Source: Pseudovirgaria hyperparasitica (lineage: Eukaryota). Taken from it: a stretch of 64,000 nucleotides of DNA. Positions 20,316 to 44,214 of the stretch are shown here, piece by piece. The stretch is taken from the NCBI GenBank assembly GCA_010093815.1, contig ML996572.1. One strand, 5' to 3'. Position numbers and translations under genes: made by a program. The notes under the pieces are model-generated. The model did not search any database. It was not told the origin of the DNA and worked only from the letters and a program-made list of their open reading frames with translations. The stretch's first letter is position 1. Every line of letters begins with the position of its first letter.

Positions 20316-21850
20316 ATGGACTATACTACTAGAACGCTAATACGCTAACCCCCTTTTATTAGTTAAGGGTAGCCCTTAACTAATAAATATAGCGGCCTTA
20401 GATACTAATATACCCCGGTATATACCGGATATACCCCTACCGGTATAATAGAAAAGGCTATATAGCGACATTACTAAGGGTAACTATATATCTATCTAAA
20501 ATATAGAACACACCTAAAGGCGCACGCTACTATAGATAGACGGAATAAAGGGGACCCCGAGAGGGGAAACCCTCCTAGATTATATTAACTACTAGGTAGT
20601 ACGTATAGAGAAGGAAGCCGGAGAGGGCTAGAAGACCCTTTTATATATATTCTAGGATCTTATCTAGAATCTAAAGGGAATTACGGAGAAGGAGAAGAAG
20701 ATATAACTAAGAGGACCGGAGGGTAGGCTCGACCGAATAGAGGCTAGCCTACGTAGAATCTAGGAGGAACTTACTTAAGGTAAGCGCCCTAGTATATAGG
20801 TATAAATAGTAGTAACACCGGAGGCTATACTACGGGCCCCCCGGACCGGTAACGTGGCGTATAGTATACGCGTCGTAATCTAGGATAAGGATACCCTAGT
20901 ATAGATCTAGTAAGTATCCCTAAAGGATATAGTAAGTAAGATTAATAAATAAAAGAGAATATAGTTAAATGTCGTTATCGCTAAACTCACGCTAGGAGGA
21001 GTAGTACTTACTACGATAACGAATATCGCGTAGTAGACTATCTTACGTGATCCGAACGCGATTAGTAGTATCTTCCTAGGCGCCTCTATTAGGGCGGCTA
21101 TATACCCGATATAGGTATACTCTATATCTATAAGCGGATAGGTTATCGGAGAAGAGGATATTACGTGGATAGAATAGTTAAACGAGCGAAAATACCTAGG
21201 GATTAAGATCGTAAGAGTATGGTAGAAGAATATATAAGAGATTAAAACTAGATTAAAGGTATACTCTACTATAATAGTAGAGCTTAAGGACCCCGCCCTC
21301 GCGTATTAAATTATATAAGAGGGATTTCTAGCGGAAGGGGAGCTTCTTATAGCGGAACTATAGAATAGAGTATAGGCGATAATATAGTGCTTTAACTATT
21401 AGGGATACGGGTATACGGTATAGCGGTACTTCTAAAAGACTAGGTATAGATAGTATTAATAAGAATATAGTATCTAGGAGTACCCCTACGGAATATAAGG
21501 AGAGGGCTAGAGGGATAGGGATACGGCGAAGTACTCTAACTATAACGGTAAGTACCCGTCGTAGTTAGCTACGTGCGCGAAACGTAAATAGGTTACTAAA
21601 TATATCTACTTAATCTAGATAAAGGGAGTAAGGTAGCTATAAACGATGCGATCTACTACTATTTCTCTCTTTACTATAATACTACTACTATAGACTACCT
21701 CCTTACGAGGAAGTAGTTAGAAATAGTAAACCATCCCGAGAAAGCTAATAATAGGACGGCCCTAAGGAATTACTAAGGCCGCCACCGTATAAGGATAGTC
21801 GTGTCTTAGAGGAACGAATATATAGGCCTATATATTCCCTAGCACCTAAT
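20316..21850 (+). pseudogene. LINE A ORF1 (gag-like, zinc knuckles)
   Basis: ATG 20316; ~21385-21430 reads *CFNY*GYGYTV*RY = QCFNCQGYGHxxxxC after de-RIP; further knuckles follow; end coordinate approximate. Confidence 0.8.
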
Positions 21851-22197
21851 AAGAGACTAAGATATACTCCTAATTATATAGGTAAACGTATAGTATAAAC
21901 GTAAGAACTAGGCGATACTCCTCGAGGAGACCGGAGCTATAATACTCGCTATATAGGAGCTATATAAACACTACTAGACGAATAAACTAATAATATACCT
22001 AGGATATTATATAATACACCCCCTAGGACTAGAGAGGAGAGTCCTCTTCTATGTCTATAAGTCTATTCTACTCTTATTATAGTTGTATACTAAACGGGAT
22101 AACCTCCGGATAATACTATACCTCTAGACGAATATTGGACCCCTCCATATATATAATATATATAATTAGAACTAATCGCTTTAGGCGGATAATATAC

Positions 22198-22569
22198 TAT
22201 GATGAGCCATCGCTACGTATGTCCCTTTTTGTAAATGGCTATGTCCTTAGTATAGTAGTCGCGACGAACTCACAAGTATCTCTCCTAGGTATTATGAGTT
22301 CTCTTTGAACGCACGACTTCTTATTAGTTCTCTTTTACGATAGGACGGGTCTATATAATACTCTTAATCGATTCATTAATAGCTAAGCCTAATAATTAAT
22401 ACCTATAGAGGCCCATGAACATAAGGAAAGGTCGAATTATCGAATATTAGTAATGGGGGAAGCGTGTCATTTAGAATGACCAAGGAAAACGCCCTCCTTA
22501 AATATATAATAAGCCATGTAATCGAGCTAGGGACACATATATATAGGGCTATAGGAGCGGCCTTCTACA
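22198..22569 (-). repeat. 3' LTR (372 bp)
   Basis: tatgatgagc...ccttctaca; direct repeat of 33241-33612; terminal TG mutated to TA. Confidence 0.95.
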
Positions 22570-22583
22570 TATACCTCCCCGGC
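22570..22583 (-). other. Polypurine tract of the Gypsy element
   Basis: Minus strand gccggggaggtata abuts the 3' LTR. Confidence 0.7.
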
Positions 22584-22719
22584 CTATAGAACTACTACCC
22601 TTAGTAGTATAGTAATTGTATAAGAAACCGTGTGAAGAACGCCTAAAAGAAAGACCTTAATATGAATAAAATGCGCCCCTAGTAAACCTCTCGGCGCGGG
22701 TAAATCTTAGCCCGGATTA

Positions 22720-25701
22720 TTAGTTAAGGGCAGCCCTTAACTAATAATCAGGTAGGTTTTTAGGCGCCTAATCTTAGTACTCGAGGTCGCGAGCTAGCTC
22801 CTAAAGAATCGTGTCGCTTATCTTAGAGAGGTTAGATTCCTCCTCGTCGGATAGTTCGTTAGGCCTCTCCTATCTATAGAAGTTCTCTTCGACGTTATCT
22901 AGGCCCGTGTTAGGCTTAAATTTCTTAAAATTAATTGGCTGCTTGGCGGCGCGCGCCTCGTTAAATTCCTTCTAGAACGACCTATCCCTATAGACTAGCC
23001 TTTCCTACCTTGCTATTTTCTTAAAGGTCTCCACGAATACCCTCGAGCCCTCCTTAAACCAGGCGTCTACCTTAGCTTTAAGTTGTTAAGGACTTGCGTT
23101 AAGCCACGCAGCTGCCTCTTCTTTCACCTTCTAGCTATCCTATCTTTTACGGCCGACTAATGCGTCGCTAACGGCGTTAAAACTCGGGAGTTAAACCGCG
23201 GCTGGGAAGGCAAAAGGAATCGCGCCGTATTTATTAGAAAATCCCGACGGAGACGTAGGTCCCGGAGTTAAATTCCTGTGAGCTACTGTGAGTTGTTCCC
23301 ATGTGCCCATTTTAGGCACTTCCATTGTTATATGATTAGGGCCAATCGCGACATACCATGGAAGTATCGTGCGTCTTCCACCCTTTACGGGACCCTAGGC
23401 GCCGTGTATTATTAGTGGGCTAGAGATGCGTACTTTAAGGGACTGGTAGGGGACCGGGACGAAGGGACTAAATCGTTTCCTATCGTCCGCATTATAGATC
23501 TTGTCATTAATAGCCGTAATTATACCGTTTCGATTGACCCCCTCGCGGAGCTTGGCCTTCGACTACTATTCGTTTAAGAACTTATAGAAGCGGGGAACGA
23601 TTATGGTATAGTCGTCACTTCGTTCGTCGTCGAGACTAATGCTTCCCTAGATTATATTAAACCCGTGTCTATCGCTAGGATCGAGGATTCGATTAATGGC
23701 GTTATCGAGATGCTTGAAACCCGTCTTATCGCCCCTATCCTAGGACTTCGCATAGTACGGGTACGAGATTAGATAGTAGTTAAGATCGGGCCGAAGAGCG
23801 ATATAGGTGAGCTAGTAAAGTGGGCATTACCTAATAAACTATTGGATATAGGAGTGGTATGTAGTTCGTAGCTAGCCGTAGTTCGATTTCTTATTAAACA
23901 TGCGCTAGTGGTACTTATACATATTAAATTCATCCCTTACGAGTTCTAGGATACTCTTATTAAGTATAGAGGTCGTCTTTTTAAGTGGCTCGAAGAGCCC
24001 TTTAATGTTAACACTTCCGGTATATTCCCACTCGTCGAAGAGTTACCTACCTATCCTACCGTCCTCCTTCTAAATCATAAATGTAATGCTAGTAAGGATG
24101 GTTTTAATATTAATGACTTACTTCGGGGTCTCTAGGGCCTAGTAATAATAGATACCTAATGCCTCTATCGGATAAGGTGGCCGCGCGTACTTCGCGAACT
24201 AGGTATAGCGGTCCTTATGAACTTTAAGGGCCCCTACGTTATCTCTAAACTTATATACCATTTTAAGTCTCGCTACTAGGTTTAAGTAGAATACGCTAAC
24301 GAGTATATTATTCTTTCTAGCCACGTCTTAGTAATGCTTGTAGTAGACTTTATACGGAATAGCTATGTTACCTATCTACGCTTTCTAGCGCACTAGTAGG
24401 GCCATTCCCTTAATGCTCGTGAAATTCTTCTTTAATGATATAGCTACCTTAAAAGTCTTCGTCACTAAAGGCGCGTATTAATACTTCTTAGGCTCGTTCT
24501 CTTCCTCGACCGATACTATCGTCTTAGGGTGCGAACTAAGAATAACCGGGGATTGTCGTATAGGCGCCCCTAGTAATTACTAAGAGCCGGTAGATAAGGC
24601 ACGTCCGCGAGTAGGTTTTGTCGGCGTGGCCGTAACGGGTACTAAAGACGTTCTCGTATGGCCCGGTAAGGGACGTTTACTAGTAGTAGTGGGAGGAATA
24701 CTTACTTTAAACGGATGACTAGCTTTAAAGAGACGACATACTACTAAACTAGGAGGCGTGCTTCGTGGAGGGGACTTTACCGTAGGCGTTACCTACACTA
24801 GTTTTAGCGACGGTAAGGTCTAAGGCGGAGGCGATGCACTCATCTCTTTGATTTATAGGTAGTATTCGACGGGCCTATGAACCATTCTACTTATCTATGA
24901 CTATTAACTAGCGGGGATAATAAGTCCCGTCTCGTTATAGAACGTTAGTTTATTTTATCGGCTAGGGTAGTTCGAGAGTTACTAGAGAGATAGGCCGTCC
25001 TTATTACTATCGCTGGCTAGGGCGGCATTAATATTAGAGCTCTAAAGATATGCCTTAATTCCTCTTCCCTTCTATCCCTGGCCGATTCGGGACCATAGGG
25101 ATGCGTTTAACTAGTTCCTTACTCTCGCCTATGTTCGCACTCGTGAGAGTGCTGCTAGCTTTTCTATAAAGTTCTATGTTTACTAGAGCTATCCGAGGGC
25201 GGATTAGAGTGACTAGCCGTCGTTATTAGGGAGGTCTTTTCGCTAGTTTTATAGGATTGCATTTTTAGCTTTTAGGATGCGGGAGTTGGTATCTCTTCCA
25301 CGACGAATTATCTCGTGGACTTCTTTCGGAATAGAGGAGTTAATCTTTACCTTACTATACCCTATTACGGCTCCTGCTTCCTAGAAGAGGTTAACTATAC
25401 TACTTGAGAGCTATTCTACGAGGCTAGTAATATAAAGGAGATTATTAAATGTGTCTAGAATATAGTCCTATCGCTCTTGCGGGTCCTAGATGGCGATAAT
25501 TCGGTTAATAGTAGACTTATTTATTTCTATAGCTTCTATAGCCTATCCGTGTGGAGTAGTAGATGGCCTTAATACCACGATAGCCGTTGATGGCCCTACT
25601 TTAGTACTCACGACTCTTAACTAGAACCGCGTCTATCTTATTAGTGCTTGACGATCTTATGACTCTTCACGGGTAGGCGTTTTCTTCTTCGGCGGGGCCA
25701 T
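22720..25701 (-). pseudogene. Extra ORF of the Gypsy element (~980 codons): unknown N-terminal region, S/P/T-rich linker, PhyH-like 2OG-Fe(II) dioxygenase domain; RIP-inactivated
   Basis: ATG at 25701 (MAPPKKKTP) is in the same frame as GFKHLD (23704-23721), II*GSISLDDERSDDYTIIVPRFYK, NE**, VPVPYQ, PLIIHG (His 23404-23406) and RRTILPWY; stops seen are TAA/TAG, explicable as RIP products. Confidence 0.8.
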
Positions 25702-25819
25702 TATTATTATTAGTTCTATCGGCGAGTTGCGTTCTAAGGAGAGGTAGTTTAAGCGAGGCGGAAGTAGAGGAGGAGGTTTTATCAATTAAGGAGGTATGGA
25801 GAGGTGTAAGAGGGAAGAG

Positions 25820-25826
25820 TTATATA
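25820..25826 (-). promoter_or_regulatory. Candidate TATA box followed by a CT-rich tract upstream of the extra ORF
   Basis: Minus strand tatataa-ctcttccctcttacacctctccatacctcc about 120 bp before ATG 25701; caveat: RIP inflates TA content. Confidence 0.4.
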
Positions 25827-25924
25827 CTATCTTAAGTTCTCTTTTTATGCCTCCTCGAATGCCGGGTATATAGTGATTTTTATAAATGATCCTTACTAAC
25901 GGCCGTAGGCCCGTATACGTGTCG

Positions 25925-26027
25925 AATCTATGAATAAATATATACTAGGTATATAGGAAATCTATGAATAAATGTGTCTACCGGGTATATGGCGGAATCT
26001 ATAAATAAATAGATACCGGGTATATTC
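25925..26027. repeat. Three tandem ~35-bp repeats (aatctatRaataaat...taccgggtatat) between pol and the extra ORF
   Basis: Three imperfect units directly visible. Confidence 0.85.
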
Positions 26028-26357
26028 TTATCCTCATGAGACTTCCTATAAGTATCTTTTTCTCTTATACCTTCTCCTTCTTTTCTTCCTTATTAGTTCC
26101 TAATAGGGCCCGTTCTATAGTAACGAAATGGGCCTTCGATGGGTGGGCTTCGATTACACGACCGGTTTTAATGTATGGTGGGTGGAATTTCGCGTAAACG
26201 CTATTATGTCTTCTTTCGAGCATTACTTACTTTAATAATGGGTTTTATTATTTTATAGTGATGATAGGGTTTATCATCCTCTTTCGATAATAGAGTTCAT
26301 CGTCATGAGACTACTTTTATAAGCATCCCTTCCCTCCTTAAAAAAACTTCTATCCCC

Positions 26358-29300
26358 TAGAAGGAGATGTCGATTCTAGGGAAACGCAAATATTCCTCTC
26401 TATTAAAGCCTTGCGGAGTAGGAATTACTACTTCCACCCGGGTTCGTGTGGCGTCGTCGAGGTGTTCCGTGAGTTATTTATGATAGTTTTCCTTATCGCT
26501 ACTCTTCTTATTTTCCTCGGTAATTCTTCTAATTGGTAGTCGCGAGGGCTTGTCGTGACTCTCGTTACTTATATTTCTCATGAAATATTTCTTTAACCTA
26601 TGGCTAGGAAACGTCCCTCTAAGCATGGCTCTATTAAGCTCCGCGAGCTTATAAGTGTAATTAAACACGGACTGGATTTTATATGGCCCCCTCTAATGCT
26701 ACCTTAGCTTTCGCTCTATGTTCTTCTATTACTACGAGTTATATAGGAGGATAATTATATTGACTGGTAACGACTCTTAACGAAGGTGATGGTCGTTATT
26801 CCATGCCTCTCTTGATTCCTCACGCGTTCGTGTCGCGTGGGCATGGGCCTCCTTAAGATTCTCGGATCTTCTCTTAAGTTATCTAGCTCGAAGAGCGAGT
26901 AAGTCGGACGTTAATCGTACCTCGTCCTAAGGGAGTATTCGGAGCGACTTAAATTTGACTTTAATAGGCATGATTGGTTTATAGCCGAGCACGAGGTATA
27001 CGGTACTATACCCTATGCTAGCACGTGTCGTTATTCTATCTATCTAGACGACCGCATGGAGGTAGTCGGGCTAGTTCTTGAATCCGCCATTAGTTATCTT
27101 CGCGAGAGTATTAGCGAGTAGTATAAAACTTCTCTCGATAATCCTATTTACTCGGGGATTATACGTAGACGTAACCTTCTAATAAATTCTATAGAGTCGG
27201 AGGAGCTCCTCTATGGCACCCATATTTTCTCTACTACCGTTATAGGTGATTTTAGGAATGATTCCGTATCTATAGATTACGTTCTTAAAGAGGAACTTTA
27301 TGACGACTATGGACGTGGCCGCCGTATATGCCTCCGCCTTAGTCTATCCGCTTAGCTATTCTCGTATAGATACTACTTTACTATACCCTATAGAAGGTGG
27401 TAGTATCGTTACGTCCAAGTGCATTCTTTACTAAAGAATAGGCGTTATAATGTGGTGGAGCCCTTTATCAAGACCTCCGAGGAGCTTACTTCGTTATTAA
27501 CATTTATTATAGGTTTTCACGTGCTATCGCACGTCTCTATATATACCTACCTACTAATACTTATCCTTAATCCTTCTAAGGGTCCCTTCGCTACCTCTAT
27601 GATCTATCTCGTTATAAGTAGTAGTAATTATACGCGCCCTAGTATTCGGATCCTTAATTACTCGTGTATGTTAGCGATGCCTATCTCCTCTCCGCTAGAG
27701 TATTCGGTCACGCACGAGGAACTTTAGGTAGTCGGTTATAAAGGCCTTATACGCTCGGTCGGTTAGGTCGGTTAGCCTCTTAAGTATAGTAAGATACTTC
27801 GTAATCCTCTACTATTTATCGCTATATTCATCTATTAAGGGAGACTTAATGGCGGTATAGTCGAGTATCTCTATCGTGTAATCTCTCCTACTAATAGGCT
27901 TGATTAACGACGTCTCTAGTATATTTATATATAGAGCCATGTCCACGAACTCGTCTAGGTCAAAGGTAGAGACGTCTGGTGGTTCTTCTCCTTCGTGCAT
28001 CCGTGAGATACCGTTGGCGACTACGTTACGCTTCCTAGGTACATGCCTAACTATAAAGTTCTATAGCTAAATCCACGCGAGCCACCTAGTAACGAGCGCC
28101 CCTAGTAAGTTAGTTACGGTGCGGTTAATTTAAGCGACTAGAGTATTCGCGTCTATTTCTATAATAAAGTACGTGCTATAGAGGTATTACCGGAACTTCT
28201 ATAACGCGTGGAGGAGGGCTCGGTACTCTAGTTTCATGGTGTCGTAGTTTCTCTTAGCTTTTAACCACATTCCTCTATTATACCGCGATAGCTAACATTT
28301 ACAATCCTCGTTCTCCTATATTAACATAGCCCCCTACCTAACGTTACTAGAGTCTACTACTAGGATTATATCTCCCGTACCTATCCCGTACCGTAACGTT
28401 ATTAGTGCGGGAGTAGTAGTTAGAGCTATCTTTAGCGCGTCCATCGAGGTCTACTCCTTAGCTATCTACTACTAGGCCGATTTATTCTTTAATAGTATAA
28501 ATAGCGGCGATGCGATAATAGCGTACCCGGGGATCTATATCCGGAAATATATATAAACGCTAAGGAAGGCTCGCACATTCGTCGTGTTTTTATAGGGTTT
28601 CTAGTCCCTAATAGTAGTAACCTTTTTATTACTCGGTCGCCTCCCTTTAATGCCGTAGACGTATCCTATAACGTTAGCGGCTTCAATATACTACTAAGTC
28701 TTCTTGCCACTTAGGGCGCATCCGGCGCGCTCTATATCCGCGAGAACCTTATCCACGTTAATTAAATGTTCTAGGATATACCTACGAATTCTAGGCAGGG
28801 CCTTCTTAGAGTTATATTTCGTCGTGGGTCCTTTAATGCCTAAGTTATCTAGGAATAGTAGAGCCCTCTCCGGGATGTGTTCTTATATAATAGTTAATAT
28901 AATCCTAACGAACTAAGCTACTAAATTAGTAGCCCCTTAAGGTAATATTATTCTATATAGTAATCCTAGGGGCGTTATAAACCCCGTTAAGTCTCGGTAA
29001 TACTCTACTAATAGAATCTAATCGTATCCTAAGAAGAAGTCGGTAAACGTTAAGACGGCTATCCCCGTAAAGTGCTCCGAGAATTCTTTACACGAGGGCG
29101 GCGTGGCCGCATTACGAATGGTGACTCGGTTGATTTCTATCGCCGAATTGATTAATCTATAATCTCGTTCCTTATTGGCTTCCTTCTTCTTTTCTACGAG
29201 AAAATAGGCGTTTCGATAAGGACTACTATAGGGCTCGAGCCTTCCGCTATTAAGACGCTCTTTTAGAATCGTGAGTACCTTCCCATGAAGGGCTCTAGGA

Positions 29301-32300
29301 ATATTAAAGTTCTTAGCCTACCATGCCTTATGTTCCACCGTTCGGATCTCCTACGGAGGTGCTACCTCTTTATTAAATTTACTAAGGTATAAGAATTCCT
29401 ATGCTAGTACTTCCTCGCGATATAATAAGATTGTATATAGTAACTTGAGTTCCGCGGGACGTAGCTCCATTCTAATCTTTAGCTAACTTATACGTAGAGG
29501 CGTTAGACGTGTTCCTAGCGGGATAGTTGCCCTTTAAGGCTCTATTAGCCTATTAAACGCGTTAAGGCCTAGGTGGACGGCCGGAAGAAGTACCTACTAT
29601 GCGATTGCTTATTCACGCTAGTCTAGATACTCTAATGGATTCCTAGGGACCTTTCGGTGGGCTTCGGAGTCATCTATAGGGTGTACTTTAACTCCCTTTC
29701 TTTTATATATGGTAGCCATACTAAATCCCTTTGATACCCCGGATGAATACCGTCTTTAGAGGCCGGTGGAGCCTACTATAAGCCGTTCTATTATCGTGCC
29801 TTATTTATATACGAAGGCAGCGTACCTTGCCGCCGTAACTAGGGCGGCTAAGTCATCTTTTCTTAATAACCGAGTAATATTTTTAGGCCGGATTTTCTTG
29901 GAAAGTAACTCTATATAACTCATTTCTATATCCGTATAAAAATATATCCTATCCCCTTCGTTAGTGGGTTTACCGGACCCTATTTAGTGCGGATTATTAG
30001 TTAAGGGTAGCCCTTAACTAATAATCCGGCTTAACTCCGGCTTCTAGCGACATGCTCCGCTATATAGTTAGTCTCTAGCTATGGAGTTACCCTCCTTCTC
30101 TAAGACTAGAATATACTCGTCCGGACTAGTTTTGAAGGTTATACGTTCTTATCTATATGCGGAGTAGACTATTAAGAGTACTTACCTAGAGGCTAACCTC
30201 TACACCGTAAGTAAGGCCTGCCTAGTATATGGCTCCCCTAGGATAAGGTCATGATTAAGTTCACTATATACGAATATCGAAGTGGCCGTAACGATCCGAC
30301 CTATGCGGATAGGGTATTACTATACTATTCCTACGAATGGAGTGCTATGCTAAGTAGCGCTAACCAAACTCGAGTTCTTTATATATGGTAGAAGCGAAGA
30401 TATCGCTAGCCCGAGACGCCTCGTAGCATCTAGTCGAATACCATTTACCTACGCGCTACTATTAAATAGTACTATACTAGTCGCCCTTTTAGGACTAACT
30501 TCCACGGGGTACCTCGGACACTCGGCCACTAGCCTTACTATCCCTTTCTTAAGCTAATTAATGTCTCGTTACGTGATGGCCGTCCCTATAGTATAGAGGG
30601 GTGCTAATACGTTAAGTTTATTTATCTCGGGAGCCATAGCATGGTCGTTTCTTCCTTTCTTCTTAGCTCTCTCCTCTCGAGCCTCGCGGACCTCTCTAGC
30701 CATGAAGTCGGGGGCGCCCTTCTCGAATACCGCACGACGTAAGTCGCCATTAAGGCTTAATAGTTCGCTAATAGTAATATTCATGGTTGTCCCTAGAACG
30801 CGCACTAGCCATACTTCGCTAGCTTCTATGCTTAGCCGCTATCCCTCGCGTAGATAGTTATTAAGCTTAACGCCTCGGATACGTGCCTTTTAACTAGGAT
30901 TTAGGCTATCCCCTTTATCTATCTTATTCTTAGGCGCCGTTAGCTCTTGTTTAGACGTTCCCTAGTCGCTACTCTTCTCGCCGTCCTCCTATTCCTCGAT
31001 AATCCTTATATACTACTCTTTACGTATTCCGCGGAGACGGGCGATCTTTCTTTTCTTAGTACGATTAGGTGTACTCTTCGTGATCCCCCTTCTAGATATT
31101 ACGAGCATAGCGGGCTCTTCTAGGGCCATCTCCTCGCGGATATATCTGTTACTAGCCACGTCGAAGCGTTTATAGAATTCTATATGTCTATCTTTCTTAC
31201 TCTCGGGCGACGTGACTTCTTCTTCCGAATCGCTGTCCGCTGAGGCCTGGTAGGGACCCTTCGTAGGTTTTATACTAATACTATATACCGGCACTCCCTA
31301 TAAAGTGTTAATGTTTACTACGGATGTAGAAACCTTCACTCCCCCTCCGTACTAGCTTAGGCCGTTTTAAACTATTACTATATAGTTCCGGATAGCTTAT
31401 AGGGTAGCTTATAGCCCTACCGAGGAGGGTGGTAATGGGATTTCTTCTCCGTTCGCCCCGAAACGCCCTTAGAATACTCGCACCCCGTTAATATTTAGTA
31501 ATCCGTCTCTAATATATCCTACTATCTCCGGACATCTATATATTGGGTGATCTTCTCTACACGTGATGCACACGATCGGTCTTCGAGGCCTATCCTAGGC
31601 TATAACGCCTCCTTAGGAGTCTCGGGTAGAGACGTATTCTCTATTCTATGTATAATTCTATGGATAAACTTACGTTGGTTCCATGGGCATGCCTTATACT
31701 TAGGGGTGTGTTAAAAGATTTAGCCTTCGCGCCTACTAGTTAATAATGGCCGAAAGTAGCTTAGGTTTGTACTTCTTAAGGGATGAGAATAAGGGATTAG
31801 AGGTAAAGTAGGACTTTATCTTAATTAACGTAAGGTCTAGTTTACTAAATCTCTCTACTATCTCGTTAAACTTATCTAATCCTAGCGTGATATATACTTC
31901 GACTAGAGAGGGGTGGCTAAATTTATTAGTTCTTCTTTCTTCATGTGACTACTCTTCTAAGCTAGTCTTCTTACTCCCTATCTTTGATTTATAGTACATG
32001 GCTATGGCCAGCTCTTATGCGGCTAAGTACTTGTTAATACGAGCTAGTTCCTTAAGTGCTCTAGCCTTTCGTGATACGAAGTTATAGATAATTATCTAGT
32101 CGTAACTATGTGCTTCCATCGTGAGTTAACATTTCTCTATAGCCCGAGCCTTAAGACTATTAGGCAGCCCTTCTAGGAAGAGCTCTATTCGCGAATATAA
32201 GCTTAGGCTTCCTTTAGCCGTAAGTTTCTCCGTGATAACATGATACTAGGAGTAGTACATGGGGAGAGAGTAGGATGGGTCTACTTTGACCATTTCCACG

Positions 32301-33055
32301 TATTTTCGGACAAAGTGGATGGTGCCTTCCTCGAGGGCGGAGTTAAATAGAGAGAATTCCTTTAATAATTCTTCACGTAGCGTGGCCTACTACTATTTCT
32401 AAAACCCACCCATTCCTTTAATGGTAGGACGGAGATAGTCCTCGCAGTATAATGGTAGGGAGGTTATCTTCTTATTAGGCGGAACTTCGTAGTTTATATA
32501 TATATCCTCGTACTTCCGAAGGAAGGCCGTGATATTTATTCCTTTAAAGCGCTTGGGGGCTAGGGTGGGTAGAGGTACTATCCTTCCTTATCGCGCAAAT
32601 GCTACGAAGAAGTTAAGTATCTCTCTACGAGTTACTAGGTCGTTGTTTTAAGCTTCTATCGCACCATTACTAGTAGTAGGTGTGCTAGTAGAGACGCTAG
32701 GGGTAAGGTTATTAGTTAAGGGATTACCTTAACTAAAGGTTGGCCTAATGCGTCTACCTATAACACCTATCATCCCTTCTCCATGTTAATTAATCCCTTT
32801 ATAAGGTGAACTATTACTATCGTCTTCATCGATATAAGGTTCACGGTATTCTACTTATGTTATTATCTTCGTGTGAGGCGTTCCTAAAGTAGTATACTCG
32901 TATAGCCGTGTTTATAAATAACAGCTATGGTAGTACTAAACAGGTTATATTTGTCGTTTTTAAACTCTTCTTTACTGCTTTATCTGGCCCTGTTTTATAT
33001 CCTATTCCCCTGAGACATTTTCGAGTCGCGCTATCACCCGTATTAGCATGCGCAT
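26358..33055 (-). pseudogene. Gypsy gag-pol, apparently one reading frame, RIP-inactivated; ends approximate
   Basis: Gag PKRFKGINITAFLRKYE ~32510-32560; CITCREDHPIYRC knuckle ~31530-31571; protease LF(D)S(G)A(Q)VN ~30445-30470 and DLILGEP ~30230-30250; RT FLD(D)LGIKGP ~28825-28855; integrase YNPRVN ~27150 and GPY ~26681-26690; gag, PR and RT checked to be in the same phase. Confidence 0.88.
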
Positions 33056-33219
33056 GCTTTTTACAGCTACTTTTAAGAGGCTAGCCCCTAGCGACTCCGG
33101 ACTCCCTGTTTTCCGGACTCGTGGCTTCGATCTAGTAAGTCTAGACTACCTTATTAGGCACGCCATATACTTCCCCTAAGCTAGTTTCGGAGTTCTAATC
33201 TCCCCCTGTAAGTTCGTAG

Positions 33220-33236
33220 TCCGGGTACGACCTCTA
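33220..33236 (-). other. Primer-binding site, probably complementary to tRNA-Gln 3' end
   Basis: Plus strand ccgggtacgacctcta = ccgggcacgacctcca after two CA>TA reversions, matching my recollection of fungal tRNA-Gln 3' ends plus CCA; lies 4 nt from the 5' LTR. Confidence 0.7.
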
Positions 33237-33240
33237 AAAA

Positions 33241-33612
33241 TGTGATGAGCTATCGCCACGTATGTCCCTTTTTATAAATGGCTATATCCTTAGTATAGTA
33301 GTCGCGACGAACTCACAAGTATCTCTCCTAGGTATTATGAGTTCTCTTTGAACGCACGACTTCTTATTAGTTCTCTTTTACAATAGGACGGGTCTATATA
33401 ATACTCTTAATCGATTCATTAATAGCTAAGCCTAATAATTAATACCTATAGAGGCCTATGAACGTAAGGAAAGGTCGAATCGTCGAATATTAGTGATGGG
33501 GGAAGCGTGTCATTTAGAATGACCAAGGAAAACGCCCTCCTTAAATATACAATGAGCCATGTAATCGAGCTAGGGACACATACATGTGGGGCTGTAGGAG
33601 CGGCCTTCTACA
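33241..33612 (-). repeat. 5' LTR (372 bp)
   Basis: tgtgatgagc...ccttctaca with TG...CA termini. Confidence 0.95.
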
Positions 33613-36600
33613 ATACTTAAGGGTACTACCGAGCTAGGATAACATATCCTTCTAGGAGACTTTAACCTCTATTATAGCTAGTAGGGTAGACTAACCATTA
33701 CCCGCGAAGAGCTTCGAGCTAGAGAACTACGTACCTAATGCCACGGCTTTCTATACCTTCTTATACTAGTAGAATAGATTACCTAGCGAAAATATAAATA
33801 AGATAAGGGCGGATCCACACTCGACCTTACCCTAGCTACTAGATATATTTATAATAGGACTCGATACTACCGCCTAAGCCTTATATAGATAGACTCCAAC
33901 TATGAATGCATGGAGACTATAATAGATATATCCACCCCTTAAGACTAACGAGGGCGATAGCTATAGAAGAATACTAACTAGGAAAAGTATCTAAAGGACC
34001 TAGAATCGACGATCCTAGACCCGTCTATAGTCGACGTATCTAATAGCCCGGCTATTAACCAGGCCGTGAATATACTCCTATAGGCGTACTAGGGAGTAAG
34101 AGATAAACACGTGCCGTACCGAATATATAGACCCCTAGACCCGAAAAGTATACCTTAAGTGCGAGAGCATAGGCGAGAAGTCCGGAGATTATATATACGC
34201 GTATACTATAACTATACACCTAAAGCGTAGAATAAATAGAGAGAGGCGAGAAGATAATAAGATAAGGTCCTCCGTAATAAGCGACGTAAATAGTAGTATA
34301 TAGTTACGGATAGATACACACGTAATACTACTAGACTATAGTATATAGTAAAATAGGCTAAAAGCACCGCCTCCCCAACACCTATACTACTTATACCCCC
34401 TCTTATATATTAAGAAAAGATATACTCTATAAGCCTCGAGAAAATAGAGATCCTATAAGAGGTTATATTCCCTCTTCTAGAACCCGTAGACCTATTAGAT
34501 ATTAACGGCACGGAATACCCGGAAGCCGTAAGTATCCCTAGGGAAATCACGGATAACGATATACTCGGCGCTATTAAGATACTCCCGAACGATAAAGCGT
34601 CTAGGCTAGACGGAATTCCGAATTAATGTCTTAAGAGGACTATATAGGCGACCTTACTAATTATAGGCCATATATTCCGAGCGTACGCCCGTATAGGATA
34701 CCACCTATAGAGCTTCTAAACTATATACACGGTTATACTCCTAAAACTAGGGAAGAGCCTAAACACGCCGAAGGGATGGAGGCCGATCGCCCTCCTCTCC
34801 TACCTTAGTAAGGTACTAGAAGCTACGATTACTAAGAAGATAAGTATAGTAGTATAGGTACACGGCCTTCTTCTAGTAAACTAGAAGGCGAAGATAGGAA
34901 GCTCCCTAATTATAGCCATTTAATATATTCTTAAGGTTATCTAGACTATATAGAAACACGGACGAGTCGTCACGCTACTCTCCCTAGATATAGTAGGGGC
35001 GTTTAATAAGGTAAACCATATAAGACTTATCTATAACCTCCGGATAAGGCGAATACCTAAGTAGATTACATGATTTATATAGTCCTTCCTCGCGTAAAGG
35101 ACTACTTAAATATATATCCCCGGATACCGAAGCGAATATAAGGAGATGGTATACGGTATCCCGTAAGGGAGTACCATCTCCCTAATCCTCTTCCTCTTCT
35201 TTATAGTAGACCTCCTTTAGGGAATAGAATATATAGAGGTAGTCGGATACGCGGACGATATATATCTCCTCGCGGTCGATAGTAGTACTAGTAGAATATA
35301 TACACGACTCGAACGAGACTATAAGAAATAGGTCTAGTAGGTAAAGCGCCACGGAGTAAAATTCGCACCTAAAAAATACTAGCTTATATACTTTATTAAC
35401 CGCCGTAGAGAATAGACTACTAGGGAGGGGGTATGTCGCCCCTAAATCGACGCCTTTATAGAACTACTAGTATAGAGTATACGAGTACTCGGCGTTATAA
35501 TCGATAATAAGCTAAAATAGGGACTATAGGTGGTACACGCCGTCTCTAGAGCCCTCTAGGTAGAAACCGCTATACGCCGGATTACGGTATCTACGTAGAG
35601 AATAGCCCGGGATAAGGCGAGATAGCTATACGTCTCCCTAGTACGTCTAGCCTTTATATATAGATACGAGTACTAGTACACGGCCCTTATATAAGCTCGG
35701 CGAGTAAAGCTTAAGTCTATATAAAACCGTATACTCCGCCTTATCTCCGGTATATATAAAGCTACTAATATAACGCTCCTCTAACGCGAGATAAATATAA
35801 TAAGTATATAGAACTTCTACTAGATATAGAGACTTATATACTTTACTAAATAATAAGTATAAGAACGTGGAGGAGATAGGGTATATACCTTCGCTATACT
35901 ACGCACACGTATCCGCGTGTATTACTAGGCCCTCCCTACTATAGAATAAACTCGAGTATAATATAAATACTATATAGAGGCGGACTCGAGCTAGACCGTG
36001 TAGAAGGTTTAAAATAACCCGGATACCGTCCTAAGCTAATAGAGCCCTAAGGAGCTTAGCCGCGTTATACGGTCGTAGATCTAGGATAAATAGAGGGAGG
36101 TACTTAAAGCCTAGTGGGCCTCCTAATAGGATAGGTATCTAGAATAGATCTAAGGGCCTTAGAAGGAACTGAGTAAATAGATATATAAAGGGCTAACGAA
36201 GGCCTAAGTATCTATACTCCTCTAAGCCTAAATAGGCGCTATAGGTCTCCTATATTATCTCTACTAGAGAGGCGTCCTAGATATATCTCCCTAGTACGAG
36301 GACTACGGCCGGAGAGGCATAATACGCCACTATCTCGCGACGTACTCTAGCCTCTATACCCTAAGATAAGCCCTCGTACGTATAACGAGGACCTCTAACA
36401 TTACGCGATAGCTTAATAAGTACCCTAAGGACGTCGCCTAATAGATGCTCGTATACCTTTCTCTCCCCTAGTTCTAGTAGATCCGTGTATATATGCCGGA
36501 AGAAGCCCGATATATACTAGAAGAACCCCGGTATATGTCGGAAGAACCCCGGGAGAACCGCGATTATTAGTTAAGGGCAGCCCTTAACTAATAATCTCCG

Positions 36601-36843
36601 CATCTACACGTGCTACCTAAGGGTAAACTATTATAATATAGGCTATAGGCCTATAGGTAGCCCCTAGGGCTATATATATATAAAGAACGAGAGGATAGAC
36701 AGAGCGTAGTTATAGATATAAGGGAGTTTTTCCTATTCATAGGTTTCTTCTTATATAGTAGCTTAGACTAGAGGAGGCATGCGCCTATAGAGTAGTACTC
36801 TACCTAGTTTACTAATATTATTATTATTATTATTATACTATAT

Positions 36844-38800
36844 CTTAAGTCTCTTAAAGTACTCTATTAGATAGATAATAATAGAGATAACTTACTAGAT
36901 AGCCCCGAACTTACTATTACCCTTACGACCCTCTAGATAATAAGTAGTAACTTAGAGTAGTAGAAGTAACTTAAGATATTACCCTATAACGTCCTAATTA
37001 TAGTTAGTAAGGCTACTAGTCTAGATAAATAGAGGCTTCTAATTTCGAGTATTAACTCTCTTTATATAAGTCTTAACTTATTAAGTTATAGACTTAATTA
37101 TTATCGCCTTGTCTTTATTAGCCTAAGTCTTAAGCGCGCGTCTTAAATACTTCCTTAAACTACTAGGTTAGTAGCTTAATTAAGTATACTTATTTCTCTT
37201 ACAGGCTATCCTAACGCGCGTAGCTTCTCTACGCTTTATCTCTATCTCTTTTACCCTCTCGCGTTATATAACCTAGGTAATATAGTACTAGAAGAATTAG
37301 TAGAGGGCTTCTCTTAGCTTAATTACCCTTTTAATTACGGAGATATAGCTATTCTATTATATCTTTATAGGTATAATAATATCTAGTAGCTTAAAATTAG
37401 AATCTATAAAGGTAAATATAAGTAATAGAATAGATATAATAGGGTAACGTACCTAGCTTAGGAAGACTATTATTAATATCTCTCTAAATATCGTAGAATC
37501 GCCGTAAGCGTTCTAGAGTATTAATATACTAGATAATTATAAAAAGAGTACTAAGAGACCTAAACTTACGCCACTTATTAATTAATATATTCTTATCTTT
37601 TAAATCTAGTACGTCTTTATAAGTAAGCTTATCCTTCCTAAATAGAATACTCTTTATAATAAGATTAATAATATAGTAAAAGTACCGTATATAAAGATTT
37701 AGACGCTAGTTATCTCTAGAGCTAACTCTAGACTAAATTTCTTTATAAATATACTCTATCGTAGTATTATTATTTAAAGTAGAGTTAAGGATAAAGTAGC
37801 TAAGGTTCTTCGCCATAAGGTTATACTAATTTAGTATAGAGAGGGTAAGTTTAGTATAATTTAGACCTATATAGACTCTAATTATCTTAGGTAAGTTAAG
37901 GAGGAAGTCGTGGAATTCCCCTAGTAGTAATATTTATTAGTATACTTATTCCTTAGTATCTAAACTTTAAACTCTACGTAATTCCTTATCTTCTATATCT
38001 ATAAAATAGATATAATATTCTATAAGTATAAATCTCTACTAACGTATTATCTAGCTATTAAAGGAAACGTATATCCTTAATAAGGCCCTAGCTATAGCCT
38101 CTATAAGTATACTAATATTCGTATTATATATACTAATAATATCACGACGTAGGGTTTTCTATATAATTAGCTAGTCTACTACGTATAGATTTACTACTCG
38201 AATTATCTTAATAAAGAAAGGACTCTCTATCTCCCTTAAGGCGTAGTTACTATATATAATCTACTTTAGTACCTTCTTTATAAACTTATCTATATAGTAA
38301 GCTTTAATAATAGCGTTTACAGTAGCCTAGCTAATACTAGACCTATTAAGGAGTTACTAAAGAATAGAAGAAGTACTATCTATAATACTATCTTAAGTAA
38401 TTCCGTAGATAGCTTCTATATAGCGCCTAGTAGCTAAGGTCTATTAAGTAGCGTGGTATATTTCTATAAGATAAAGCTTTTTAAGATTATAATAATAGTA
38501 ATAAACCTAGTAGATTCGGCCTATTTTCTTCTCCTTAACCCTATATCTATAGCGCTATAGCTAGCTTAGCTCGCTACGAGTTAAGAGACGCTTAATAGAG
38601 ATATAGTATCTATAGAGGCGTATCTAGTTAATTATCTTATAGCCTTTAGAAGACTTAAAGTTAAAGGAAATATTATCTAAGTTATCTCGCTAAGCACGTG
38701 TGATTATTAGAGTATTACTAGAGATAGATACTACTAGTAGTATATTAAGTAACTCGGTTATAGACACGGTAGCTAAGGATAGAATAGATATAATTAAGGT
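36844..38800 (-). pseudogene. hAT transposase N-terminal and catalytic part, RIP-inactivated
   Basis: De-RIPed minus-strand motifs: BED-like YWVCxxC...TS..RHM..IHGI (~38400-38520), GYFILDSASNNDT (~37765-37803), RCFCHIINL (~37660-37687), TRWNS (~37348-37362). Confidence 0.8.
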
Positions 38801-38914
38801 TCTTTAGAGAGGTAAAAACGCGTATTAATTTATAGATATTAGGAATATTTAACATCCGTAGATATATCTTATATAGTATATCTATCTAATTTATATTACT
38901 AACTAGAATTAATG

Positions 38915-38919
<5 letters not shown>

Positions 38920-38945
<26 letters not shown>

Positions 38946-41900
38946 TTATATAACTAGGTAGAGTAGTACTCTATAGGCCTATGCCTCCTCTAGTCTAAGC
39001 TACTATATAAGAAGAAACCCTATAGGGAAAAACTTCCTTATATCTATAACTACATCTCGTTAAACCTCTATTTCGTCTTAAGTATATAGCTATAGGGTAC
39101 GCCTATTAGCCTATAGCCTATATTACCGTTATTTTACCCTTAGGTAGCACGTATAGGTGCGGAGGTTATTAGTTAAGGGCTGCCCTCAACTAATAATCAG
39201 GGTTCTCCCAGGGTTCTTCCAGTATATATCGGGTTACTACCAGCATATACCGGGTCTCTTCCAGTATATATTTCCGGGTCTACTAGTACTAGAGGAGTAG
39301 TAAATATATAAGTATCTATTAGGAGACGTCCTTAGGGTACTTATTAAGCTATTATATAATATCTAAAGTCTTCGTAATATAGATAAGCTATTACCGTTAT
39401 ATATAGAGGTTAGGGTATATAGCTAGATAGTGGCGTATTATACCTCTCCGGCTACACGCCTTACACTATAGGGAGGTATTAGGAATGCCTCTCTTATAGA
39501 TATAGTATAGGAGTCCTATAGCGCCCGTTCGGGCTTAGATAAGTATAGATACTTAGGCTTTCGTTAGCCCTTTATATATCTATTTACTCGGTTCCTTCTA
39601 TAGCCCTCGAATCTACTCTAGGTACCTATCCTACTAGAAGGTCTAGTAGATATAGAGTATCTCTTTCTACTTATCTTAAGTCTATAACTATATATTTTTT
39701 ATAAGTTCTTAAAGGCTCTACTAGTCTAGAAGAGCGTCCGGATTATCTTGGACTTCTTATACTACTTAGCTAGAGTCGGCTTCTATTAAGCACCTATACC
39801 GTATTCGATTCTAGCCTATATATAGGAGTGCGCGGTAATATATACTAATTCGTACACGTAGCGCGGCGAAAGTATATTCTACGTTTTCTATACGTTTCTA
39901 TACTTATTATTTAGTAAAGTATACTACCCTCTATATCTAGTAGAAGTTATATATACTTATAACGTCTATCTCGCGTCGTAGTAGTACCGTGTTAGTAGCT
40001 TTATATACGCCTAATATAAGATAGAGTATACGGTTCTATATAGATTCGAGCTTTATTTACCTAGTCTATATAAGGGCCGTGTACTAGTACTCGTGTCCGT
40101 ATATGAAGGCGGGTCGTACTATAGATATATATAGCTAGCGTGCCTTATCCCGGGCGGTTCTCTATATAGAGACTATAATCCGTCGTATAGCGGCTTCTAT
40201 CTAGAGGGCCCTAGAGACGGCGTATACTACTTATAGTCTCTATTTAAGCTTACTATCTAGTATAACTCCGAGCGTGCGTATGCTTTATACTAGTAGTTCG
40301 TTAAATACGTCGATTCGGGGGCGTTATTCGCCTTCCCTAGTTATCTATTTCCCTTAATAATTAATAAAGTATATGAGCTAGTATTTCTCTAGGGCGAACT
40401 TTGCTCTATGGCGTTTTATCTACTAGAGGTACCTCTCGTGGTCCTATTCTAGTCGTCTACACGTTCGGTTAGTATTATTATTAATAGCTAGGAGGTATAT
40501 ATTATCGGCGTATCCGACTACCTCTATATACTTTATTTCTTAAAGAAGGTCTACTATAAAGAAGAGGAATAGGATCGGAGAGATAGTACTCCCTTATAGA
40601 ATGCCGTATACTATCTCTTTATATTCGCTCTAGTACCTAGGGATATATATCTAAGTTATTCTTTCTATAAGGAATAACTATATAAAGCGTGTAATCTATT
40701 CTAGTATTTATCTTATCCGGAGGTTATAAATAAGTCTTATATAGTTTACCTTATTAAACGCTCCGGCTATATTAAGGGAGAGGAGCGATACTACCCGTCC
40801 CTATTTCTATACGGCCTAGACGACTTTAATAATATATTAGATAGCTATTATTAGGGAGCTATCTATCTTTACCTTCTAGTTCGGAGGGAGAAGATTATAT
40901 TCCTATACCGCGGTACTTATCTTCTTCGCTATTATAGCCTCTAGTATCTTACCTAGGTAGAAGAGAAGGGCGATTAGTCTCTATCCCTTTAGGGAGTTAG
41001 GGCTCTTTTCTAGTTTCGGGAGTATAATAGTATAGGCAACTCGGAAGCTCTAGGGGTGGTACCCCTACGTAACGCATGCTTAGAATATATAAGTAATAAG
41101 CGGTAGGGTCGCTTTTATAGTATTTTTTAGGTATTAATTTAGAATTCTATCTAGTCCGGGTGCTTTATCATTTAGGAGTATCTTAATAATATTAAGTATA
41201 TCCTCCTCCGTAACTTCTTCGGGGATGTCTACCGTATATAGATATTTAGCGCCGTGAACGTCTAATAGGTCTACTAGTTCCGGGAGAGGGAACATGGCCT
41301 TCTATAGGGCCTTAGTTTTCTTAAGGCCCGTGGAGTATATTCTCCCCTAATATATTAGGGGAGGCATAAGTAGCGGGGGTGTTAGAGTATCTACGCCCTT
41401 AGCCTATTTCGCCATACGCTATAGCCCTATTATATATTATATCTATTAACTAGTAATTATACGCTACTATTTACGCCTTTTATTATAGAGAACTTTATCG
41501 CGTTATTGTATCGCTTCCTTCTATTCTTCCTATAACTTAGGTATCCTTATATAGTATACGCGTCTATATAGCCTTCGGGCGTCTTATCTACTTTCCCGTA
41601 CTTAAGGAATCTCCTTTACTTCTAGGGGCCGGTATATTTAGTATAGTACGTGTTTATTTCTCGTATTCTAGTATATTTATAGGAGTGTCTATACGGCCTA
41701 GTCTATGGCTAGGTCGTTAGATATATCGACTATAGAGGGATCTAGAATCGCCGATTCTAGGTCCTTTAGGTACTTTTCCTAGTTAGTGTCCTTCTATATC
41801 TATTATCCCCGTTATTTATTCGGGGTATACACGTCTATTATAGTTTCTATATATTCGTGGTCGGAATCCGTCTATATCTAGCCTAGGCGGTAGTATTAGA

Positions 41901-44214
41901 TCTGGTAACTAATATACTCCGTGGCGAAGGTAAGGTTAAGCGTAGACCCGTCTTTATCCTATTTATGTTTTTTCTATATAACTTATTCTATAGGTATAAG
42001 TAGGTATAGGAAGTCGTGGTAGTGGGTACGTAGTTCCCTTACTCTAAGTTCTTCCCTAACCACGGCTAGGCCTCTCTACTATTAGTGGTAGAGGTTAAAG
42101 TCTCCTAGGAGGATATGTTACCCTAGTTCCGTAGTACCCTCGAGTATCTCGTCTAGTATAAGTATACGTTATTAGTTATATATATTATATATATATAGGG
42201 GGCCTATATCTATTTATAGGTGTAGTATTATCCTAAGGTTATCGTACTCGGTATACGACTATAATAAAAGTAGTATTAACCTATAAATGTGGAAGAGGAC
42301 TCATCTTTCTAGTCCTAGAGGGTATATAGTATGGTATCCGGGGTGTGTGGTTAGTTTACTTATCTAGTAGTATTTATAGGGTTCCTAGATAGCGAGTATT
42401 ATAGCCCTAGTCTCTTTAAGGAGCGTCGCCTAGTTCTCTCTTTTATATTATATATTTATCTATATAATTTAGAGTATATTCTAGTCTCTTATTAGATACT
42501 AGAGAGTATATATACCTATATACTTATTCCTCGGAGGCGCGACTATCCTCGCGCGGTAGCGGCTTTAACTATACCTTTTAGTCGTCCTATCGTCTTTAGA
42601 ATAGTCTACTATTCTATCTAACTATCTTCTAGAGGGGAGGTTAGGGGTATTATAAAGGAAGGGCTTATAGTAGGTATTATATTCTATAACTATCTCGCGC
42701 CTCTCGATTTTAATTATATGAATATATTCTATAACCTATTTACGTTTTATATATGTTAATAACCATGATAGGTATTTCCTATTATAGTTTAAACACTATA
42801 CTATATCCCTATTTCTTAGTCTATCTCCTCGTGGTTTATAAGGGCACTCCTAGATAGCGTGGTCCCTACGGTACTATCCGTACTTAGTCTTCTATAAGTA
42901 CCTTTATATAGTATATCTATACCCTTAATAGTTAAAGTACTATATTATTACCTATACTCTATTCTATGGCTCGGCTATAAGGAGCTCTCCTTCTATTAGA
43001 AATCCCTCCTATATAATATATTATACGAGGGCGGGGTCTCGGAGCTCTATAATTATAGTAGAGTGTTTTTTCGCCGTCGTCTTAATCGTCTATAGGTTCT
43101 TCTACTACGCTTTTATAATCTTAATCCCTGGGTATTTTTGCGTATTAGATTATTCTATACGCGTAATATCCTCCGCTCCGATAGCCTATCCCCGTATAGG
43201 TACTACGTGTACTATAATCGGGTATATAGCTACTCTAATAGACGCGCCGGGGAAGATACTATCTATTACGTTTAGATCTCGCGAGATGTTTTACTACGTA
43301 GTATTCATTATAGTAGTAAGTACTACCCTACCTAGCGTAACTTTAGTAGCTATAACACTCGACTATATTCCTTTCTATTCGTTAATCTTATTTATAATTT
43401 CCTTTAGAGATATCTATTAGACCTACGCTAGCGTGTTCTTATTCTAGATTATAACACGTATACTATATACTCTATCTATAGTCCTAGTAGTTCTTAGTAT
43501 AGTGGCTCCGGGTATTACTATAATCTAAGCCTACGTATTAGGGCGCTTACCTTAGGATAGCTCTTTCTAGATTCTCCGTAGGCTAGCTTCTATTTAGTTA
43601 AGCCTACTACTAGGTTCCTCTTATAGTAACTTTCTTTCTTCCTCCGTAATTCCTCTTAGATTCCGGATAAGGTTCCGGAATATATAAAGGAGGGTCTTCT
43701 TTCCCTCCTCGGCGTCCCTCTCTATATATATTATCTAGTATTTAATTTTATCTAGGAGGGTCTCCCCTCTCGGGGTCCCCTTAGTCTAGGTTATCTATAG
43801 TGCTTCGTACCCTTAGTTAGTTCCTATATTTTAGATAGGTGTCTAGCTATCTATATTAATATTACTATATAGCCGTTTCTACTATACTAGTAGGGGTATA
43901 TCCGGCGTATGCTAGGGTATTATAATACCTAAGGCCGCCATGGTTATTAGTTAAGGGTAGCCCTTAACTAATAAAAGGGGGTCGGCGTATCGGCGTTTAT
44001 TAGATATAGTCTATACTTATATTATTAAAGAGTCTTTAAGTATATATATATAGTATCTCTATACGTTAGTATCGTTATATATTATACACTATACGTATAC
44101 ACGTGTGTCGGAGGTTATTATACTTAGTATACTCTATTATTTAATGTATATAAATCGCTGTTTTACCCCGAGTTGACCAGTTTGGTCCGTTAGGGTATGA
44201 GAAGTTTTTTTTTT
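38920..44214 (-). mobile_element. Full-length Tad1-like LINE (copy B, ~5.3 kb), diverged relative of copy A, RIP-mutated
   Basis: 16-bp TSD tagaattaatgtataa 38904-38919 / 44215-44230; (TAA)n tail on plus strand ~38917-38944; VVGYAD(D) at 40501-40521, LLGDFNL ~42090-42112; ORF1 ~42490-44014, ORF2 ~39170-42497. Confidence 0.92.

Follow-up and report, generated by a model that had tools for sequence, protein, structure and literature searches.

Palindromes of described mobile elements and of the present locus

Miniature inverted-repeat transposable elements (MITEs) are commonly nested in other transposons. Bacterial repetitive extragenic palindromic (REP) and other palindrome-associated elements are prokaryotic and are moved by HUH transposases; Helitrons carry a 3′ palindrome 10–12 nt upstream of their CTRR terminus and insert between A and T; and the leaders of retroviruses and long terminal repeat (LTR) retrotransposons contain dimerisation palindromes, self-complementary sequences that form a hairpin or an intermolecular duplex. 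A discrete cis module common to unrelated retroelements is rare, to our knowledge. Here we describe a palindrome that recurs seven times in a transposon cluster of Pseudovirgaria hyperparasitica (contig ML996572.1 of assembly GCA_010093815.1; the whole analysed stretch of 64,000 nucleotides is called the window), with four copies residing in two copies of a long interspersed nuclear element (LINE A and LINE B) and three in a Ty3/Gypsy LTR retrotransposon (the Gypsy element) nested in LINE A. With a probability of roughly 45%, we regard it as a discrete, hairpin-forming passenger module that was acquired by duplication-free insertion or template switching and was then copied passively.

The palindrome resembles MITEs and fold-back elements in its inverted arms with little between them, its lack of coding capacity, and its residence inside unrelated LINE and LTR elements. 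It differs from them in being only 31–41 bp long, in having no target-site duplication and no solo copy in the window, and in that no contig row listed shows an empty palindrome site. Bacterial REP elements are likewise palindromes of ~35 bp that have no target-site duplication and are placed just after reading frames, but the present palindrome is eukaryotic, and a search of 185,579 prokaryote genomes gave no match to its pattern; an HUH/Y1 transposase was not seen in passing, no search having been aimed at one. Dimerisation sites of leaders share the self-complementarity, whereas at this locus only the degenerate copy lies in a leader and the arms are much longer; moreover, we know of no LINE that packages dimeric RNA. 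Helitron 3′ hairpins do not match either, as the flanks, when read, contain no CTRR at the required distance on either side of any copy. The stringent-type stem-loops in LINE 3′ untranslated regions, which are common to partner short interspersed nuclear elements (SINEs; PMC5135761), are alike in being stable hairpins of the LINE 3′ non-coding region that recur in another retroelement. In comparison with these stem-loops and LINE/SINE pairs, the present palindrome lies ~255 nt upstream of the tail and also in the LINE 5′ region, and its second carrier is an autonomous LTR element without target-primed reverse transcription. Among the papers listed, keyword searches of the literature gave no description of a palindrome shared in this way between retroelements, and the 13 papers found with the motif strings, judging by their titles, contain nothing on transposons.

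Seven copies in two retroelement families

A search for TTAGTTAAGGGC-N-GCCCTTAACTAA (pattern TTAGTTAAGGGCNGCCCTTAACTAA, up to three mismatches) gave seven matches in the window, starting at 20359, 22720, 29997, 32712 (with three mismatches), 36567, 39169, and 43947, and none in 100 dinucleotide shuffles, by which a chance origin of the shared palindrome is excluded. Six of the copies are strong and the one at 32712 is degenerate. The set comprises the longest perfect palindromes anywhere in the window, with arms of up to 20 bp when one mismatch is allowed and perfect arms of 14–18 bp in five of the six strong copies. Thus, seven copies common to the LINE and the Gypsy element, one of them degenerate, are present as stated in a preliminary description of this DNA, and its coordinates and arm lengths were all reproduced by a palindrome scan. 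No copy was found outside the two carrier families in the window, neither in the hAT element nor in the host genes, consistent with what had been noted before, and the frequent occurrence in non-transposon DNA that had been considered there is not seen within these 64 kb. A search with a single arm returned 14 matches against 2.76 expected by chance, of which 13 are arms of the seven sites (the site at 32712 contributing only one) and the remaining one, at 23823, has three mismatches; a lone arm is thus never seen. When a profile was derived from the six strong copies and run over the window, it again recovered the seven known sites, together with one marginal match at 37296–37319 (E value, 0.06), which on inspection is a decayed relic of the palindrome at best. 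This match aside, neither the pattern nor the profile search revealed a further copy in the window.

Sharing between the two families is confined to the palindrome. In a BLAST comparison of the window with itself, LINE and Gypsy sequences showed similarity over 31–62 bp only, with 97–100% identity between copies across 31–35 bp, and the similarity ends ~17–25 bases on either side of the centre. The LINE A 3′ copy and the Gypsy copy after the third reading frame are identical across 35 bp. Local alignments that forgive the transitions caused by repeat-induced point mutation (RIP) gained at most ~17 score units beyond the ~62–70 of the palindrome itself, representing weak extensions only. Among the six strong copies, three of 31 core columns vary, and every column varies beyond ~17 bases from the centre; the length of the arms also differs from site to site (14–20 bp), and the flanks are unrelated. 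Direct repeats flanking the palindromes measure 0–8 bp at inconsistent positions and none beats random expectation: around 400 centres drawn at random from this region, a repeat of at least 6 bp was present in 45% of cases and one of at least 8 bp in 7.5%, the latter being the length at the best palindrome site. The earlier observation that flanks differ between the element classes and that no target-site duplication is evident was thereby confirmed, and a polymorphic mini-insertion with its own duplication, considered there as an explanation, appears nowhere among the joints and indels listed. Since only the palindrome is shared and no duplication flanks it, the module consists of the palindrome and nothing more, and its presence in two retroelement orders implies a common source or exchange. 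Hence, of the proposal that a cis module has been either selected or exchanged, the part on a common source or exchange is borne out by the 97–100% identity over 31–35 bp, and selection is not demonstrated.

Folding of the sense RNA gives, for each of the six strong copies, a hairpin with a stem of 14–19 bp and a 3-nt loop (−16.4 to −26.5 kcal/mol; z-scores, −3.8 to −8.5), and the degenerate copy folds with −11.5 kcal/mol (z-score, −2.75). Rfam covariance models gave no match at E values up to 1 on either strand of 19500–45000. The palindrome had been proposed to be a site for a dimeric DNA-binding protein, a proposal that fits poorly with arms of 15–19 paired bases, which are far longer than the half-sites of such proteins; such long perfect arms would sooner suggest a hairpin, or an origin by fold-back, than a protein dyad.

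The boundaries of the carrier elements were read from the sequence and are listed in the table below together with the palindromes. The self-comparison matched 20120–22168 and 33613–36877 to 44208–38879 in inverted orientation, with 72.6% and 74.2% identity for the two parts. LINE A is flanked by a 9-bp target-site duplication (ATACTATAT, at 20111–20119 and 36835–36843); LINE B has the same 5′ start and tail and a 13-bp duplication (TACATTAATTCTA). When the broken frames were read through stops as X, Pfam recognised in LINE B the reverse transcriptase (RT) domain RVT_1 (41.9 bits; cut-off, 29.6) and, under its cut-off, Exo_endo_phos_2 (17.6 bits); taken on their own, the 109 stretches of the transposon cluster that are free of stops and at least 45 aa long matched no family. 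On these features, LINE A and LINE B are genuine copies, in inverted orientation, of one non-LTR element of the apurinic endonuclease/RT (APE/RT) type. The LTR element is bounded by direct repeats that the self-comparison placed at 22200–22574 and 33243–33616 (375 bp, 95% identical), corresponding to LTRs at 22198–22569 and 33241–33612 (372 bp, 95% identical) that start with TG (TA in one LTR), end with CA, and are flanked by ATAC. It encodes, in order, protease, RT, RNase H, integrase, and a third reading frame; the protease and RT align to the relatives P0127 and P0122, Pfam detected RT_RNaseH (44.9 bits) and RT_RNaseH_2 (41 bits), and Integrase_H2C2 scored just below its cut-off (23.1–23.7 bits) downstream of the RT. 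Its LTRs, short duplication, and domain order mark it as a genuine Ty3/Gypsy element. A scan of viral contigs for relatives of its RT gave none.

Table. Coordinates of the palindrome copies and of the retroelements that carry them
Feature	Position	Strand	Description
L_A5	20355..20387		LINE A 5′ region; perfect arms 15 bp, centre 3 nt; apex GGGTAGCCC
G1	22712..22752		Gypsy element; arms 20 bp with one mismatch; perfect at 22715–22749, arms 17 bp, centre 1 nt
G2	29990..30028		Gypsy polyprotein frame; 39 bp; perfect arms 18 bp, centre 3 nt
G3	32709..32736		Gypsy element, degenerate; 10-bp arms and 5-nt centre at 32712–32736; right outer arm lost
L_A3	36562..36596		LINE A 3′ region; perfect arms 17 bp, centre 1 nt
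L_B3	39164..39198		LINE B 3′ region; one G/T arm mismatch
L_B5	43944..43974		LINE B 5′ region; perfect arms 14 bp, centre 3 nt
LINE A 5′ part	20120..22197	+	Interrupted by the Gypsy insertion
LINE A 3′ part	33613..36834	+	Ends in a (TTA)n tail
LINE B	38917..44214	−	Complete element of 5298 bp; identity to LINE A, 73%
Ty3/Gypsy LTR retrotransposon	22198..33612	−	11.4 kb; nested in LINE A

Other palindromic sequences occur in and around the carriers. Perfect palindromes with shorter arms (11–12 bp) and a sequence unrelated to the shared palindrome lie within and adjoining the LINE copies, at 21816–21837, 41342–41363, and 44286–44310. Perfect arms of at least 9 bp gave 28 matches in the window (a count in which one palindrome may score at several centre sizes) and 1–3 in block shuffles, all of the 28 falling within 20355–44310, the transposon cluster. 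In the flanks, short repeats containing CCGG adjoin the LINE palindromes at 20400–20440 and 36500–36560: a 14-bp palindrome, CCGGTATATACCGG, follows the LINE 5′ copy, and repeats resembling GAAGAACCCCGG precede the LINE 3′ copy.

Placement, conservation, and origin of the module

Further copies of both families were surveyed in the contigs of two public runs (X1 and X2) of one sample, which contain 67% and 52% of the sampled words of 20100–30099. Contigs of at least 80% likeness were placed on 20100–40099, amounting to 47,111 of 592,746 records in X1 and 16,642 of 180,325 in X2. The word depth summed over the LINE and Gypsy element in X1 was ~80,000–260,000, compared with ~180–440 for single contigs on the unique spacer; this sum is no copy number and serves only as a sign that the families have many copies. 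Single-contig joints appear elsewhere in the LINE and Gypsy elements, and an empty site was found at no palindrome among the 14 joints listed and the 12 of 30 indel rows listed. Given many family copies and no listed contig that skips a palindrome, both founder elements probably already had the module as a fixed part. These data also bear on the idea that the palindromes derive from assembly, an adapter, or a linker, which is prompted by the likeness of 30–45-bp perfect palindromes to some library junction linkers. Such an artefact is hardly credible: the palindromes occupy homologous positions in two diverged LINE copies and show RIP-type differences there, a large share of the words of the locus recurs in both runs, and the 25-mer pattern gave no match in the metagenome, prokaryote-genome (185,579 genomes), and viral contig collections. 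The adapter origin raised in the preliminary description thus found no footing. A looser 19-mer matched 72 loci, which were rejected as unrelated, with only 2–10 of 22 outer bases matching.

In the reading that we favour, the module would have been a hairpin-forming unit of 31–41 bp, with arms of 14–20 bp and a centre of 1–3 nt, which the founders of two high-copy retroelement families in a Dothideomycete-like fungus already contained. The founder LINE would have carried two modules, in its 5′ and 3′ non-coding regions, and the founder Gypsy element three, in the leader, the linker between protease and RT, and the 3′ region after the third reading frame. Entry may have occurred by a fold-back insertion that generates no target-site duplication, or by an RT that paused at the hairpin and switched template between retroelement RNAs. 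Afterwards, the module would have been propagated passively with every copying of the element, and its present near-identity would be a residue of RIP; with all RIP-prone dinucleotides but one converted, the copies would converge on one AT-rich sequence. Direct observation covers the copies, their sharp limits, the missing target-site duplication, the RIP saturation, the many family members, and the lack of a listed empty site; how the module entered and that it has no function are inferred.

The role given here to RIP can be compared with the state of the locus. In the transposon cluster, TpA/ApT is 1.56–1.78 and (CpA+TpG)/(ApC+GpT) is 0.07–0.46, against 0.68–0.76 and 1.21–1.24, respectively, in the host DNA, showing that the cluster is strongly RIP-mutated and RIP-saturated. 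The palindrome retains 0–2 CpA/TpG per 35 bp. A single CpA, in the centre, has undergone C>T change in three of the six strong copies, so that the one RIP-prone dinucleotide of the palindrome is the central base that varies; the difference between an A and a T centre that had been noticed in the homologous 5′ copies of LINE A and LINE B is real. Among the arms of the strong copies, one arm of the LINE B 3′ copy has a G where the 11 others have A. Under RIP, this G would mean that the present TTAA was perhaps once TTGA/TCAA, an ancestral form that the single variant suggests. As to conservation, when 35-bp windows of the alignment of LINE A with LINE B are ranked, those over the 5′ and 3′ copies fall within the top 13% and 1.8%, respectively (11.8% and 2.8% among AT-matched windows), and several other windows are equally or more conserved. 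The 31-bp core contains one transversion at the 5′ site and none at the 3′ site, which 34% and 14% of the windows equal, and two and one transitions, respectively, which 10% and 4% equal; neither type of count is remarkable. The palindrome had been said to be better conserved than the surrounding LINE sequence; it is indeed above average, within the top 2–13% of windows, but only mildly so and not exceptionally. Because the cluster is RIP-saturated, the palindrome has one RIP-prone dinucleotide, and conservation between LINE A and LINE B is only moderately raised over the average, near-identity is no proof of selection: such likeness between the families would be expected in any case of an AT-rich sequence saturated by RIP. 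If the module is a passive passenger, it calls for caution, as near-identity of an AT-rich motif in RIP-saturated DNA would be no evidence of constraint.

The placement of the copies bears on a possible function. In LINE A, the palindrome centres are 251 nt from the element start (20120) and 255 nt short of the point where the (TTA)n tail ends (36834), both outside the recognisable endonuclease and RT domains. The degenerate Gypsy copy is found in the leader or at the beginning of gag, ~500 bp past the 5′ LTR, and G1 comes just behind the third reading frame, with ~142 bp left to the 3′ LTR. G2 is located between protease and RT in the polyprotein frame, where its 39 bp amount to 13 codons, one of which is a stop; the present sequence has a stop in all frames. 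The linker in which it lies gave no alignment with relatives (141 aa here, 134 aa in P0127), and this copy looks like tolerated extra sequence.

It is possible, although rather unlikely, that the palindrome is instead a selected cis-element recruited by both families, either as an RNA hairpin or, at the DNA level, as a cruciform or dyad to which a protein binds. As an RNA hairpin, it might, again with limited likelihood, serve binding of a host factor, RNA stability, control of translation, packaging or dimerisation, or recognition by the RT. The recognition of stem-loops in the LINE 3′ untranslated region by the element's own RT is an established concept (PMC5135761). Scarcity of RIP targets can explain the conservation on which this alternative leans, and other findings do not favour it: the central CpA mutates freely, the Gypsy copy in the leader has decayed (three mismatches in 25, outer arm lost), no compensatory double change is seen and only one of the 12 strong arms carries a variant, Rfam provides no family at E values up to 1, and the centre base, which relative to the sense strand is A, T, A, A for the LINE and T, T for the Gypsy element, has no consistent orientation. 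Moreover, a LINE and an LTR element have few common steps at which one cis signal could act. Were the module under selection, it would point to a host factor, or a step of the life cycle, that LINE and LTR elements of fungi have in common.

Several observations nevertheless weigh against a passive passenger or in favour of a selected element. The placement is non-random, since four of the five sites are in end regions or after the last reading frame and the two LINE copies are each ~250 nt from an element end; in the view of a selected element, the Gypsy leader, 3′ region, and pol linker count as non-random positions too. In favour of that view, all copies fold as hairpins, the strong ones with the markedly low z-scores given above, and the LINE 3′ copy is within the top 2–3% of conserved windows (top 1.8% of all 35-bp windows). 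The G that the variant arm of the LINE B 3′ copy keeps, where all other arms have A, still pairs with U in the sense RNA. For a rare neutral insertion, a total of five separate positions across two founder elements is high, and ~40 kb of other window DNA contains neither a solo arm nor a copy outside the two families, so that, with the duplication also absent, nothing in the window shows independent mobility. The absence of an empty-site contig among the rows listed also agrees with a selected element; the comparison behind it covers copies at least 80% alike, 12 of 30 indel rows, few loose ends, and the X1 joints in part, and k-mer contigs may end at perfect palindromes, showing absence better than presence.

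A quite improbable origin is an active or recent miniature transposon, MITE-like or fold-back, that inserted into dispersed copies and favoured AT-rich, RIPed DNA. Its terminal inverted arms (14–18 bp perfect) with almost nothing between them, its nesting in other transposons, and its five independent positions would suit such an element. However, both copies lie at corresponding sites in LINE A and LINE B even though these differ by 27%, a target-site duplication of constant length is missing, no contig skips a site among the rows listed for the 47,111 X1 and 16,642 X2 records placed, and the spacer, other repeats, and host DNA of the window contain no copy.

We also consider, with some doubt, a broader view that treats the palindrome as a portable hairpin cassette of ~35–40 bp, exchanged between or independently recruited by the two retroelement orders as a REP-like mobile hairpin or as a shared RNA or DNA signal. 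In its mobile form, the cassette would be, by analogy, a eukaryotic counterpart of the REP-like hairpins that leave no target-site duplication, which seems unlikely; equally doubtful is its form as a signal, in which both elements would be tied to one factor encoded by the host or by an element. If such a cassette exists, its placement beside the ends of coding blocks would be functional, and a mobile module would be among the shortest eukaryotic mobile units, moving without a target-site duplication.

The Gypsy third reading frame and neighbouring sequence

The third reading frame of the Gypsy element (22744–25701, minus strand) follows the integrase and comprises 986 codons, interrupted by 60 stops of the RIP type. 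At E values up to 0.001, 797 relatives were found (best, 1.1e-89); these are stand-alone proteins of ~900 aa. None of the six relatives tested contains a Pfam family, a profile search of PDB sequences gave nothing below an E value of 0.2, and a scan of viral contigs found no relatives. In an alignment of 40 relatives, an invariant His is followed two residues on by a nearly invariant Asp and then by a second invariant His and Arg/Thr; this His-x-Asp...His motif is retained in the window copy. A structure model of the relative P0128 (mean predicted local distance difference test score, 79.4) gave structural matches to proline hydroxylase (7dt0; E value, 4.4e-06), SnoN, EctD, and DUF1479 proteins, so that a PhyH-like fold of the 2-oxoglutarate/Fe(II) dioxygenases is predicted for its C-terminal part. 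Transposon-borne domains of this enzyme type have been described for Gypsy elements of orchids (PMC9289625) and for DNA transposons of fungi (PMC12730594). No link was found between the third reading frame and the palindrome.

The two LINE copies stand tail to tail around a spacer of 2 kb (36835–38916) with ~33% G+C, which has the most extreme RIP index of the window, (CpA+TpG)/(ApC+GpT) = 0.07, and a contig depth of only 1,300–4,000; it contains the marginal palindrome-like match at 37296–37319. Beside the transposon cluster lie ordinary host genes, encoding DNA ligase I (60044–62821, minus strand) and an HsbA-domain protein (57820–58746, plus strand), and a fragment of an ABC transporter gene (52556–54565, minus strand). 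The host genes are fungal. The best matches of DNA ligase I are from Dothideomycetes and lichen-forming ascomycetes (64–69% identity) and, as it is at most 69% identical to any recorded protein, no close sequenced relative is present in that collection. Tandem-like repeats with a period of ~135–144 bp and 71–76% identity occur at 2807–3420, inside an open frame of 951 codons (2105–4960) that has a weak HC2-like low-complexity match only.

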